Positions 37,166 through 40,451 of a stretch of DNA of 64,000 nt are shown here, piece after piece; the first letter of the stretch is position 1; each line of letters opens with the position of its first letter. The stretch is from Giardia intestinalis. Lineage: Eukaryota. The DNA lies in NCBI GenBank assembly GCA_000002435.2, contig CM018793.1. One strand, 5' to 3'. The translations under genes and the position numbers were made by a program. The notes under the pieces are model-generated. The model had not been told where the DNA came from, did not search any database, and saw only the letters and a list, made by a program, of their open reading frames with translations.

Positions 37166-37180
37166 ATTTACTATCTAAGT
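37166..37180 (-). promoter_or_regulatory. VSP-type extended polyadenylation signal ACTTAGATAGTAAAT (consensus ACTYAGRTAGTRAAY).
   Basis: Read on the minus strand, TAG-atgt-ACTTAGATAGTAAAT lies 4 nt after the CRGKA stop codon. Confidence 0.6.
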
Positions 37181-37184
37181 ACAT

Positions 37185-40100
37185 CTACGCTTTGCCTCTG
37201 CATAGGAACCACCAACACAAGAAGCCAACAAGACCACCTACAATAACTATCACAGCCACGGCGATGCCTGCAATGGCGCCGGTAGAAAGGCCACTCTTAT
37301 TGACGCTTCCGCCGTTGTCAGTGCCATCCGTCTTGACGTAGCAGATGACAGAGCCACCATCGCCGCCAGCTGGAGGAGCACAGCTTACGCAATCTTTAAC
37401 TCCAGTGATAGGCTTATTACCGTTAGGATCGTTTGTGTCGCATCTTACACATTTGGTTCCAACCTGATAATATCCTACAACGCAAGATGAACATGTGTTT
37501 GCATCGTTTGCACTAGTGCACGTTTTGCAAGCGGAATCACACAAAGGGCATACTCCAGCCGCACTAGGCTGAAGACTATTGGCGCACGTCTCGCACTTGT
37601 CGCCCTGACTGGCTAGCGTGCATATCTGTATGCCAGGTTGTCTGTCAGTCTTATAGCAGCCGTTGTCCTGGCGGAAGTACCCACTGGCACACGTAGTGCA
37701 CCCTCCCTTGCCATCTTTCACCTTGCACGCAGCTGCGCGGGCATTGTCTGCTGTACAGACCCCGTTGACGGGGACCTCCGTGGATGTGCTGCACTTCGAG
37801 CAATACTTTGTCCCTCCGATGGTGGCTCCGCAGGTCTCGCATCCGCTAGCTCCACTCTGGGGCTTGCACCCGTCCACGCAAGTACCGCTTGATGGACTGT
37901 TCTCATCCGTGTATTTGAGCATCTTCCCAGCAGGACAGGCCGTACACTTATCAGCACCCTCACCCTTACACTCTGCGCACGCATCGTTGCACCTCTTGCA
38001 TGTCTTTTTGCCACTATCGTCTCCGTAGTAGCCCTTGAGGGTCGTGCAGTCAGATACGCACTGACTAGTTGGGGTGAGGTAATCGCCGTCATTACATTCA
38101 GTGCAGGCCTCGTTCTCGGCCTTCGGGTTTGTGCAGTCCCTGCAGTTGGGCGTGTTGCACTTCCTCTCGACGCACTGGCTCCCGCTCAGAACGTAGGCGG
38201 GGTCGCAGCCAGTGCAGGCCTCGTTCTCGGCCTTCGGGTTTGTGCAGTCCCTGCAGTTGGGCGTGTTGCACTTCCTCTCGACGCACTGGCTCCCGCTCAG
38301 AACGTAGGCGGGGTCGCAGCCAGTGCAGGCCTCGTTCTCGGCCTTCGGGTTTGTGCAGTCCCTGCAGTTGGGCGTGTTGCACTTCCTCTCGACGCACTGG
38401 CTCCCGCTCAGAACGTAGGCGGGGTCGCAGCCAGTGCAGGCCTCGTTCTCGGCCTTCGGGTTTGTGCAGTCCCTGCAGTTGGGCGTGTTGCACTTCCTCT
38501 CGACGCACTGGCTCCCGCTCAGAACGTAGGCGGGGTCGCAGCCAGTGCAGGCCTCGTTCTCGGCCTTCGGGTTTGTGCAGTCCCTGCAGTTGGGCGTGTT
38601 GCACTTCCTCTCGACGCACTGGCTCCCGCTCAGAACGTAGGCGGGGTCGCAGCCAGTGCAGGCCTCGTTCTCGGCCTTCGGGTTTGTGCAGTCCCTGCAG
38701 TTGGGCGTGTTGCACTTCCTCTCGACGCACTGGCTCCCGCTCAGAACGTAGGCGGGGTCGCAGCCAGTGCAGGCCTCGTTCTCGGCCTTCGGGTTTGTGC
38801 AGTCCCTGCAGTTGGGCGTGTTGCACTTCCTCTCGACGCACTGGCTCCCGCTCAGAACGTAGGCGGGGTCGCAGCCAGTGCAGGCCTCGTTCTCGGCCTT
38901 CGGGTTTGTGCAGTCCCTGCAGTTGGGCGTGTTGCACTTCCTCTCGACGCACTGGCTCCCGCTCAGAACGTAGGCGGGGTCGCAGCCAGTGCAGGCCTCG
39001 TTCTCGGCCTTCGGGTTTGTGCAGTCCCTGCAGTTGGGCGTGTTGCACTTCCTCTCGACGCACTGGCTCCCGCTCAGAACGTAGGCGGGGTCGCAGCCAG
39101 TGCAGGCCTCGTTCTCGGCCTTCGGGTTTGTGCAGTCCCTGCAGTTGGGCGTGTTGCACTTCCTCTCGACGCACTGGCTCCCGCTCAGAACGTAGGCGGG
39201 GTCGCAGCCAGTGCAGGCCTCGTTCTCGGCCTTCGGGTTTGTGCAGTCCCTGCAGTTGGGCGTGTTGCACTTCCTCTCGACGCACTGGCTCCCGCTCAGA
39301 ACGTAGGCGGGGTCGCAGCCAGTGCAGGCCTCGTTCTCGGCCTTCGGGTTTGTGCAGTCCCTGCAGTTGGGCGTGTTGCACTTCCTCTCGACGCACTGGC
39401 TCCCGCTCAGAACGTAGGCGGGGTCGCAGCCAGTGCAGGCCTCGTTCTCGGCCTTCGGGTTTGTGCAGTCCCTGCAGTTGGGCGTGTTGCACTTCCTCTC
39501 GACGCACTGGCTCCCGCTCAGAACGTAGGCGGGGTCGCAGCCAGTGCAGGCCTCGTTCTCGGCCTTCGGGTTTGTGCAGTCCCTGCAGTTGGGCGTGTTG
39601 CACTTCCTCTCGACGCACTGGCTCCCGCTCAGAACGTAGGCGGGGTCGCAGCCAGTGCAGGCCTCGTTCTCGGCCTTCGGGTTTGTGCAGTCCCTGCAGT
39701 TGGGCGTGTTGCACTTCCTCTCGACGCACTGGCTCCCGCTCAGAACGTAGGCGGGGTCGCAGCCAGTGCAGGCCTCGTTCTCGGCCTTCGGGTTTGTGCA
39801 GTCCCTGCAGTTGGGCGTGTTGCACTTCCTCTCGACGCACTGGCTCCCGCTCAGAACGTAGGCGGGGTCGCAGCCAGTGCAGGCCTCGTTCTCGGCCTTC
39901 GGGTTTGTGCAGTCCCTGCAGTTGGGCGTGTTGCACTTCCTCTCGACGCACTGGCTCCCGCTCAGAACGTAGGCGGGGTCGCAGCCAGTGCAGGCCTCGT
40001 TCTCGGCCTTCGGGTTTGTGCAGTCCCTGCAGTTGGGCGTGTTGCACTTCCTCTCGACGCACTGGCTCCCGCTCAGAACGTAGGCGGGGTCGCAGCCAGT

Positions 40101-40451
40101 GCAGGCCTCGTTCTCGGCCTTCGGGTTTGTGCAGTCCCTGCAGTTGGGCGTGTTGCACTTCCTCTCGACGCACTGGCTCCCGCTCAGAACGTAGGCGGGG
40201 TCGCAGCCAGTGCAGGCCTCGTTCTCGGCCTTCGGGTTTGTGCAGTCCCTGCAGTTGGGCGTGTTGCACTTCCTCTCGACGCACTGGCTCCCGCTCAGAA
40301 CGTAGGCGGGGTCGCAGCCAGTGCAGGCCTCGTTCTCGGCCTTCGGGTTTGTGCAGTCCCTGCAGTTGGGCGTGTTGCACTTTTCGCTGCCGTTCTGCCC
40401 GCTGCGCTTTGCCAGCACTGTTACACAAACTAGGAGAAATCCTACCAACAT
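37185..40451 (-). CDS. vsp: Variant-specific surface protein (VSP) with about 20 tandem 37-aa Cys-rich repeats.
   Basis: The N-terminal [14 protein letters not shown] is a signal peptide. There are dozens of CXXC motifs. The C-terminal TM helix is followed by the invariant tail CRGKA-stop, and the VSP poly(A) signal lies downstream. Confidence 0.9.
   Translation of the reverse strand: [1088 protein letters not shown]
38100..40380 (-). repeat. Perfect tandem array of a 111-bp unit, about 20.5 copies, coding (unit [37 protein letters not shown]).
   Basis: The period was measured directly (e.g. tcgttctcgg at 38110 and again at 38221). All copies appear nucleotide-identical. The period is divisible by 3, so all six frames stay open. 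Confidence 0.9.

Follow-up and report, generated by a model that had tools for sequence, protein, structure and literature searches.

VSP37 of Giardia intestinalis WB-C6: a catalogued tandem-repeat VSP with a uniform array of 111-bp units

The VSP gene at 37185..40451 on the minus strand of the 64-kb stretch of DNA analysed here ("the window") is GL50803_0041626 / XP_001708478.2. We hold with high confidence that it encodes a catalogued tandem-repeat VSP, a type I membrane protein whose array was amplified from a single-copy module and has probably been homogenised since. Gene, repeat unit and class are all on record in the literature; VSP37 illustrates a known class cleanly and offers little that is new.

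The identification encounters no contradicting evidence. The window is part of chromosome 5 of the human gut parasite Giardia intestinalis WB-C6 (2020 PacBio reference), and the products of ten neighbouring genes match WB-C6 proteins in the range KAE8306115..KAE8306137 exactly. VSP37 is flanked by a NEK kinase gene at 33495..37025 and a further kinase gene at about 40668..41852. Gene 41626 is listed as VSP37, TR111 by Adam et al. 2010 (PMC2996952), and its unit is printed as repeat consensus #18 in a preprint (bioRxiv 10.1101/2022.03.07.483299); the 111-nt unit of the window is identical to that consensus. Nucleotide and amino-acid lengths, Cys and CXXC counts, Inr, signal peptide, TM segment, tail and location on chromosome 5 all equal the record in Table S1 of the preprint, and the gene in the window does not differ from the 2020 reference record. 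The identifier GL50803_0041626 is itself absent from the main texts in the literature, and from the proteomics and Be-2 supplements.

Gene architecture

The gene and its product are made up as follows:

37185..40451 (-): complete CDS, 3267 nt including the stop codon, 1088 aa (ORF call, Pfam VSP match)
40447..40453 (-): candidate initiator TAatgTT around the start codon, with the ATG at 40449..40451
40383..40451 (-): leader of 69 bp / 23 aa, including the signal peptide (sequence and preprint Table S1)
38163..40382 (-): 20 full, identical 111-bp units of 37 aa each (Tandem Repeats Finder and own count)
38099..38162 (-): last, partial unit, equal to the first 64 nt of the unit and followed by a diverged paralogous module
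37278..38098 (-): non-repeated Cys-rich ectodomain (homology search, 79% identity to ESU37618.1)
37203..37277 (-): transmembrane helix, 25 aa (sequence, preprint Table S1, overlap with an AlphaFold helix)
37188..37202 (-): cytoplasmic tail CRGKA (sequence)
37185..37187 (-): stop codon TAG (sequence)
37166..37180 (-): VSP-type extended polyadenylation motif ACTTAGATAGTAAAT, with AGTAAAT inside it (sequence; preprint Table S6)

The sequence hallmarks of a VSP are assembled in this one gene: a signal peptide, a CXXC-rich ectodomain (161 Cys, or 14.8%, and 54 CXXC motifs in 1088 aa), a single TM segment followed by CRGKA, the poly(A) motif, and an initiator of the form PyAatgTT. The match to the Pfam VSP family (PF03302) has E = 1.1e-92 and scores 311 bits against a cut-off of 31.4, and 37185..40451 (-) is the only ORF in the 64-kb window that ends in CRGKA*. 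Published records agree in detail: the signal peptide of GL50803_0041626 is listed in Table S1 of the preprint, for which SignalP was applied (bioRxiv 10.1101/2022.03.07.483299); the initiator was defined as PyAatgTT, with TAATGTT listed for gene 41626 (Adam et al. 2010, PMC2996952); and Table S6 of the preprint gives TACTTAGATAGTAAATGCGC in GL50803_0041626 as a match to the motif GACTTAGGTAGTRAAYGCKK, with p = 1.2e-9 (bioRxiv 10.1101/2022.03.07.483299). ACTTAGATAGTAAAT starts 4 nt past the TAG stop. An earlier note on this DNA had called the gene a VSP on the strength of its CRGKA tail and poly(A) signal, both of which are present on re-inspection, and had estimated that a 111-bp unit in about 20.5 copies makes up two-thirds of the protein. 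Both statements stand, as do its coordinates: there are 20.58 copies, and the 20 complete 37-aa units together with a 21-aa partial copy make up 70% of the protein.

The product is a type I membrane protein. Its signal peptide leads into the six-cysteine module of 37 aa, present 20.6 times, and then come 274 aa of Cys-rich sequence outside the repeats, the TM helix and CRGKA. The tandem-repeat VSPs have been described as a subclass with head-to-tail repeats of 105-516 bp in 2 to >20 copies, preceded, in three genes of Figure 1, by leaders of 66-99 bp (Adam et al. 2010, PMC2996952); VSP37 has that layout, its 69-bp leader running directly into 111 bp x 20.58. Two further ORFs over the array, 38098..40614 (-) and 38129..40510 (+), were considered as genes and rejected; they exist only because stop codons occur in just two of the unit's six reading frames.

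Relatives and origin of the unit

WB has a paralogue, GL50803_0050366 (XP_037901765.1), on chromosome 2 rather than chromosome 5. Its unit is also 111 nt / 37 aa long, shares its Cys spacing with the VSP37 unit, and is identical to it at 100 of 111 nt (90%) and 29 of 37 aa; its units vary slightly, while those of VSP37 are all identical. (In a published pattern search the 41626 and 50366 consensus sequences each score 21 times in GL50803_0041626; bioRxiv 10.1101/2022.03.07.483299.) The two consensus units are set apart by nine codon differences, eight non-synonymous and one synonymous. Diversifying selection between the two was considered and rejected, nine changes being too few against a neutral 3:1 (estimated p about 0.3). 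The leader of GL50803_0050366 carries a CRP136-like segment, PGYTINNDTKQCTKDPEAPC; judged by its sequence the gene combines a CRP136-like piece in the leader with CNTPNC units after it, a chimera that points to exchange among repeat-bearing VSPs.

Where does the unit come from? The array probably arose by amplification of a module (CNTPNCxxCxNPKxxxExCTxC...) that is single-copy in related VSPs. In each of four other VSPs (P0001, P0005, P0006 and P0099) one QCNTPNCKxCDNPKTDxExCTECNDxxYLTPTxQC directly follows the protein's own, different array. A protein from the Logan collection (P0236) can be aligned collinearly with VSP37 from the tail of a unit through the unit junction and the partial unit into the unique region (57% identity, 100 aa), and it has just one copy of each of these. 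The best database relative among the matches listed is ESU37618.1 (P0001), a VSP of isolate DH with 79% identity over the C-terminal 30%; it was rejected as a positional orthologue, its neighbours (Cpn60_TCP1, CDC50) being different and the locus not syntenic.

Other searches, in the collections named here, yielded no independent copy of the array for comparison. Exact look-up in a collection of 15 billion proteins found neither the 1088-aa protein nor constructs with 1, 2, 3 or 10 units. The homology matches listed include no VSP with a period of 35-40 aa and no version of VSP37, which repeat masking of the index may explain. HMMER, with five units as query against 1.84 billion representatives, gave 36 weak matches (the best at 31% identity) to generic Cys-rich repeat proteins, which are uninformative about close relatives, and a scan of metagenomes for the unit junction gave 0 matches.

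Expression and role

If expressed, the product of VSP37 would, like others of its family, form the surface coat of the trophozoite, and each molecule would show the host one 37-aa epitope about 20 times over. We infer this use from the family and from the intact Inr, signal peptide and poly(A) features, because no expression record for GL50803_0041626 was found in the literature and supplements searched. Its peptides are flagged 'Not Unique' (bioRxiv 10.1101/2022.03.07.483299), and proteomics is therefore unable to resolve it.

One can think of the gene, instead, as an intact but silent reservoir, rarely or never displayed and serving mainly to give or receive sequence when tandem-repeat VSPs recombine. 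The lack of an expression record is compatible with such a role, as are the exchange suggested by the chimeric GL50803_0050366 and the recombination described within vsp clades (Adam et al. 2010, PMC2996952). However, TAatgTT, signal peptide, an unbroken 3.3-kb ORF and poly(A) motif are all in place; the WB reference annotates the gene as a VSP and not as a pseudo-VSP; and gene 41626 is solitary and does not lie downstream in a linear array of genes (Adam et al. 2010, PMC2996952). We consider a silent reservoir unlikely, and favor an expressed coat protein. An array of this kind would present one epitope some 20 times per molecule at a length that can change without any change of sequence, and change of array length would then constitute a second, within-gene layer of surface variability beside VSP switching.

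Copy number and uniformity of the array

Tandem Repeats Finder reports a single array in the whole window, 38099..40382, with a period of 111, 20.6 copies, 100% matches and 0 indels; our own count is 2284 bp, or 20.58 copies. Comparing the array with itself at a lag of 111 yields 0 mismatches in 2,173 comparisons, synonymous sites included, the reference being a single consensus of a tetraploid cell in which rare unit variants or allelic length variants are invisible. The exact periodicity ends sharply, with not one further base on either side: in the last copy the first mismatch to the unit falls at unit position 65, and beyond it 33 of 47 positions differ. Zero substitutions in a self-comparison of about 2.2 kb are not due to chance.

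Is the array partly a product of its assembly, its copy number or its perfect identity reflecting long-read consensus calling and polishing? Copy number is assembly-dependent, because the record of 2007 is ten units short of that of 2020: in the 2007 assembly gene 41626 has 718 aa, 101 Cys and 34 CXXC (Adam et al. 2010, PMC2996952), while the 2020 PacBio reference record has 3267 nt / 1088 aa (bioRxiv 10.1101/2022.03.07.483299, Table S1). The difference from the Sanger record is exactly 10 units, and a construct with 10 rather than 20 full units reproduces its 718 aa, 101 Cys and 34 CXXC; within one clone, this gap may reflect assembly collapse or an allelic difference. Allelic copy-number variation has been described for vspA6 and vspC5, with the caution that assemblies condense repeats and give copy numbers that are no more than approximate (Adam et al. 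2010, PMC2996952). The reference, moreover, is one consensus for four chromosome copies, corrected by Illumina pile-ups, and short-read assemblies fail to enter the gene from its 3' side: at least six Logan short-read contigs coming from the neighbouring gene get no further than the conserved stretch that codes for TM/CRGKA, short of the array, and the three that were aligned (L002, L003 and L005) end inside it.

Against an origin in assembly stands the way the reference was made: WB-C6 was assembled with HGAP and Quiver, checked with BridgeMapper, which showed no misassemblies, and corrected with Illumina data (Xu et al. 2020), a correction that changed only 50 SNPs and 85 indels genome-wide. 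Other WB tandem-repeat VSPs (P0005, P0099, P0121 and P0006) are just as homogeneous in a comparison made at the protein level, and the independent assembly of isolate DH has a VSP repeat of its own with 1 mismatch in 450 positions. PacBio reads should easily span an array of only 2.3 kb. That the array is even in part an assembly product seems to us very unlikely; the step from 718 to 1088 aa between Sanger and long-read assemblies nevertheless means that repeat copy numbers in VSP catalogues are provisional.

Could each copy instead be held constant by strong purifying selection, for example through a six-Cys constraint, in place of recombinational homogenisation or recent expansion? The six conserved Cys of each unit, with a spacing conserved across ten different unit types, would suit such a reading. 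It is highly improbable all the same: selection on protein cannot hold synonymous third positions identical in 20 copies, and with 0 differences at any site the reading is as good as refuted. Nor is the sequence tightly constrained, since units of the paralogous array accommodate 8 amino-acid changes each.

We return to recombinational homogenisation. Identity is 100% within the array and 90% to the array of GL50803_0050366, and because of this contrast the pattern fits concerted evolution. The earlier note, having seen no nucleotide divergence among the units, had proposed recent expansion or concerted evolution and had expected copy number to depend on the assembly; the mismatch count, the comparison with the paralogue and the ten-unit gap between records bear it out on each point. 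As the pattern suggests, units that often undergo unequal exchange, slippage during replication or gene conversion with one another would stay uniform, and the same processes would also be expected to alter copy number.

Base composition of the repeats

GC3 is 0.92 in the VSP37 array versus 0.48-0.57 in this gene outside its repeats; across 14 neighbouring genes it is 0.44-0.63. It lies at 0.76-0.95 in all 17 of the unit consensus sequences examined, and in a VSP of isolate DH it is 0.88 within the repeats and 0.57 outside them. This enrichment could conceivably be the footprint of GC-biased gene conversion homogenising VSP arrays, a tentative suggestion that we regard as possible but rather doubtful. 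To our knowledge, meiosis has never been observed in Giardia; if the suggestion is correct, GC-biased conversion would provide sequence-level evidence of frequent homologous recombination in this organism. The difference in GC3 between repeated and non-repeated sequence is in any case a cheap and testable lead on how arrays are homogenised.

Predicted fold

An AlphaFold2 model of 436 residues (mean pLDDT 84) shows four short strands in each unit, a pattern with a period of 37 residues, and a helix at model residues 412-433 that overlaps the TM segment at 407-431. The best Foldseek matches are to R-spondin Fu1-Fu2 (probability about 1.0, target-normalised TM-score 0.56-0.64, 21-25% identity), with a best E of 1.9e-3 and none at E <= 0.001; a search of the PDB by sequence gave 0 matches. 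The predicted units can be likened to furin-like repeats (R-spondin Fu1-Fu2; the Cys-rich domains of EGFR/IGF1R), as beta-hairpin modules, rich in disulfides, that stack into a rod. This likeness is one of fold, an analogy drawn from a predicted model and not demonstrated homology. Furin-like and EGF matches by SMART have been recorded in some VSPs (bioRxiv 10.1101/2022.03.07.483299).

Comparison with other tandem-repeat VSPs

CRP136 (GL50803_103142, VSP130), to which the earlier note had referred the unit for comparison, has the architecture of VSP37: a short leader, many six-Cys units of 35-40 aa and a conserved VSP C-terminus. It has reportedly been claimed to resemble sarafotoxin. Other short-unit tandem-repeat VSPs (115047, 137744, 114162, 33279, 50392, 102662 and 114813) are built in the same way. 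The layout common to them all is C-x4-C-x2-C-x(6-9)-C-x2-C-x(10-12)-C, the VSP37 unit having the six-Cys order of the CRP136 type (C-x4-C-x2-C-xn-C-x2-C-xm-C in a unit of 35-40 aa); like VSP37, they have 13-15% Cys and an Inr, and the GC3 of their units is 0.78-0.92.

Sequence and spacer lengths, on the other hand, differ. The VSP37 unit is Cx4Cx2Cx9Cx2Cx10Cx4 and that of CRP136 is Cx4Cx2Cx7Cx2Cx12Cx7; the loops of x9 and x10 in VSP37 are x6-7 and x12 in CRP136 and the other short-unit VSPs. In local alignments of doubled units to that of VSP37, CRP136 and the short-unit VSPs score 52-118 and the GL50803_0050366 unit scores 353; at a score of 85 the CRP136 unit shares little with it beyond the Cys framework, and the two are not similar in sequence. 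The CRP136 unit is also longer, at 120 bp (22 copies in the 2010 catalogue, PMC2996952) against 111 bp.

Two further, classic arrays are known from published work, as summarised by Adam et al. 2010 (PMC2996952): vspA6 (CRP170), with a 195-bp unit in about 23 copies and an immunodominant repeat, and vspC5, with a 105-bp unit in >20 copies. Like VSP37, both open with a short leader and carry upwards of 20 near-identical units; their unit sequences are unrelated to that of VSP37. The repeats of vspC5 reach the conserved 3' end of the gene, whereas the array of VSP37 is followed by a unique region of 274 aa.

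Gene and array structure

The 64-kb window holds one tandem array only (Tandem Repeats Finder: 38099..40382, period 111, 20.6 copies, 100% matches, 0 indels), and that array is contained in a minus-strand ORF whose product is a VSP of 1088 aa. By direct count it is 2284 bp long, or 20.58 units of 111 bp; comparison with itself at a lag of 111 gives 0 mismatches, the 20 full units do not differ from one another, and the exact periodicity cannot be extended by even one base at either side. An earlier note, made from sequence alone, had placed about 20 copies here with no visible divergence: this is confirmed, and its coordinates and numbers for gene and array are accurate in every figure on recount. 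The gene and its neighbors are arranged as follows.

33495..37025, minus: NEK-type kinase gene with kinase and ankyrin domains, downstream of the VSP gene
37166..37180, minus: poly(A) motif ACTTAGATAGTAAAT, 4 nt beyond the stop codon TAG
37185..40451, minus: VSP gene
about 40668..41852, plus: kinase gene upstream of the VSP gene; kinase domain only seen

The protein reads, from its N-terminus:

leader, 23 residues
repeat block, 20 units of 37 aa and a partial copy of 21 residues
Cys-rich region after the repeats, 274 residues, non-repeated
C-terminus, last 30 residues, ending CRGKA

The start codon lies in the context TAatgTT, and 14.8% of the residues are Cys, with 54 CXXC motifs. The CRGKA tail and poly(A) signal by which the note had recognized a VSP are both present, and the protein matches the Pfam VSP family (PF03302) with E = 1.1e-92. 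It is the only CRGKA-ending ORF of the window, in which no other VSP-like segment was found except one weak 40-aa match (tblastn: 13622..13735, minus strand; 42% over 40 aa to the Cys-rich C-terminal part, E = 1.5e-5), falling in an ORF (13295..18280, 1661 aa) that is otherwise unrelated to VSP. Two long ORFs in other frames, 38098..40614 (minus, 838 aa) and 38129..40510 (plus, 793 aa), are by-products of the array, because the 111-bp unit is free of stop codons in four of its six frames.

Only ~160 bp after the stop and ~216 bp before the start separate the gene from its surroundings; being flanked so tightly by two kinase genes, it does not lie in gene-poor DNA. Ankyrin-repeat (protein 21.1) genes make up much of the remaining window.

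A catalogued gene whose recorded length has changed

Neither the gene nor its repeat is new: the gene is annotated in the reference, and two VSP catalogues list it together with the repeat. Ten neighboring ORFs match Giardia intestinalis WB clone C6 proteins (KAE8306115..KAE8306137) exactly. Supplementary tables to bioRxiv 10.1101/2022.03.07.483299 contain the entry GL50803_0041626 (XP_001708478.2; NC_051860.1, chromosome 5; labelled 'VSP'), with 3267 nt, 1088 aa, Inr taatgtt, 161 Cys (14.80%), 54 CXXC, an 18-residue signal peptide, a 25-residue TM segment and a CRGKA tail; the window ORF agrees with every one of these values, and the repeat consensus printed there for GL50803_41626 is identical to the 111-nt unit. 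The poly(A) motif printed for the gene is TACTTAGATAGTAAATGCGC. Adam et al. 2010 (PMC2996952) list gene 41626 as VSP37, TR111, on chromosome 5, with Inr TAATGTT and 9 repeats, and give it 718 aa, 101 Cys and 34 CXXC.

A construct with 10 full units instead of 20 has exactly the 718 aa, 101 Cys and 34 CXXC of the 2010 table; the 2007 Sanger assembly therefore fell 10 units short of the 2020 PacBio assembly. The note's expectation that copy number would depend on the assembly is borne out: 718 aa in 2007 against 1088 aa in 2020. Adam et al. 2010 (PMC2996952) call their repeat numbers approximate and caution that repeats become condensed in assemblies; for vspA6 and vspC5 they report copy number varying between alleles. 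Another tandem-repeat VSP, XP_001710273, grew from 1035 aa in RefSeq version.1 to 1419 aa in.2. The 2020 WB-C6 assembly was made with HGAP and Quiver, followed by light Illumina correction (50 SNPs and 85 indels genome-wide). PacBio reads in general comfortably exceed the 2.3 kb of the array, so that 20.6 units are probably correct for the dominant allele. The 2020 reference is nonetheless a single consensus sequence for a cell that is tetraploid.

Copy number cannot be read from short-read assemblies. Of the Logan contigs listed that carry the neighboring gene, six in number, none reaches beyond the conserved TM/CRGKA coding region of the VSP; the three aligned ones (L002, L003 and L005) end within it, at about 37198..37296 of the window, and the end of L002 runs over into TM sequence from a different VSP. 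It is the conserved 3' end common to all VSPs, not the array, that breaks these aligned assemblies. In a collection of 15 billion proteins the 1088-aa protein is absent, as are versions with 1, 2, 3 or 10 units, while all ten neighboring proteins tested are present; no VSP with a repeat period of 35-40 aa, CRP136 included, is among the homology matches listed. Short-period repeat proteins may have been lost from that collection.

Origin and homogeneity of the array

Where does the 37-aa unit come from? Four related tandem-repeat VSPs (P0001, P0005, P0006 and P0099) have repeat units longer than, and different from, this one, and each carries, directly after its own array, one copy of QCNTPNCKxCDNPKTDxExCTECNDxxYLTPTxQC, a homologue of unit residues 1-21 together with the diverged module behind the last partial unit. 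P0236, a 290-aa VSP-like ORF (896..1768 of Logan contig L008, SRR3177751), is collinear with the VSP, with 57% identity over 100 residues that run from the tail of a unit through a unit junction and the partial unit into the unique region, each of these in single copy. By these comparisons the unit is an ordinary VSP module that was amplified. L008 itself is a 2.6-kb contig on which several short VSP-like ORFs follow one another; it may represent an array of pseudo-VSPs from another isolate.

A second 111-nt unit, that of the paralogous GL50803_0050366 on chromosome 2, is identical to the present one at 100/111 nt and 29/37 aa, and its copies vary slightly among themselves. From its sequence, GL50803_0050366 looks like a recombinant of two repeat-bearing VSP lineages. 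Its leader, as given in the preprint supplement, opens with a CRP136-like segment, PGYTINNDTKQCTKDPEAPC, followed by CNTPNC units.

Units are thus 100% identical inside the 41626 array and 90% identical between the 41626 and 50366 arrays, with 0 synonymous differences among the 20 copies. Selection at the protein level cannot produce such a pattern, lacking as it does synonymous differences. It is the pattern expected of concerted evolution or very recent expansion, the two readings that the note had offered; the homogenizing mechanism would be unequal sister-chromatid exchange, slippage or conversion.

The array also differs in base composition. Its GC3 is 0.92, against 0.48-0.57 across the non-repeated part of the gene (37188..38098) and values of 0.44-0.63 among 14 further genes in the window. 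In each of the 17 published VSP repeat consensus sequences examined, GC3 lies within 0.76-0.95; an isolate DH VSP (L001, 10001..11812) has 0.88 inside its repeats and 0.57 outside, and a single non-repeat VSP, over its first 400 nt only, has 0.38. The raised GC3 of repeats might have been left by GC-biased gene conversion.

Expression and proposed role

GL50803_0041626 bears all the sequence features of an expressible VSP, and its array encodes an unbroken string of folded six-Cys modules that lies between the signal peptide and the conserved stalk, TM and tail; a literature search found no expression record of the gene. Judging from the VSP family, the product, once chosen for expression, would coat the trophozoite, and unequal exchange would change array length, generating size variants of unaltered sequence. 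The vspA6 repeat dominates the antibody response, according to the summary in Adam et al. 2010 (PMC2996952), and by analogy the repeated 37-aa epitope here is likely to be dominant too.

Predicted fold and comparison with CRP136

The last 3.6 units and the C-terminal part were modelled with AlphaFold2 on an alignment of 70 VSP homologues; the model (mean pLDDT 84) has four short strands recurring every 37 residues and a TM helix at the C-terminus. A sequence search of the PDB found no relative of the protein, and Foldseek returned 0 PDB matches at E <= 0.001; its top match was to the furin-like repeats Fu1-Fu2 of R-spondin (E = 1.9e-3, target-normalised TM-score 0.56-0.64), followed by the Cys-rich domains of EGFR/IGF1R. 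This ranking is in line with the furin-like and EGF matches by SMART reported for some VSPs (bioRxiv 10.1101/2022.03.07.483299).

Among the consensus units printed in the same preprint, all ten short ones (35-40 aa) have six Cys in the layout C-x4-C-x2-C-x(6-9)-C-x2-C-x(10-12)-C. The comparison with the CRP136 type that the note had called for finds the same six-Cys order, spaced Cx4Cx2Cx9Cx2Cx10Cx4 in the present unit and Cx4Cx2Cx7Cx2Cx12Cx7 in CRP136, with low similarity outside the Cys framework: the alignment score is 85, compared with 353 for the 50366 unit. By this comparison the unit is a module of the same kind as those of the CRP136 type, built of a different sequence.
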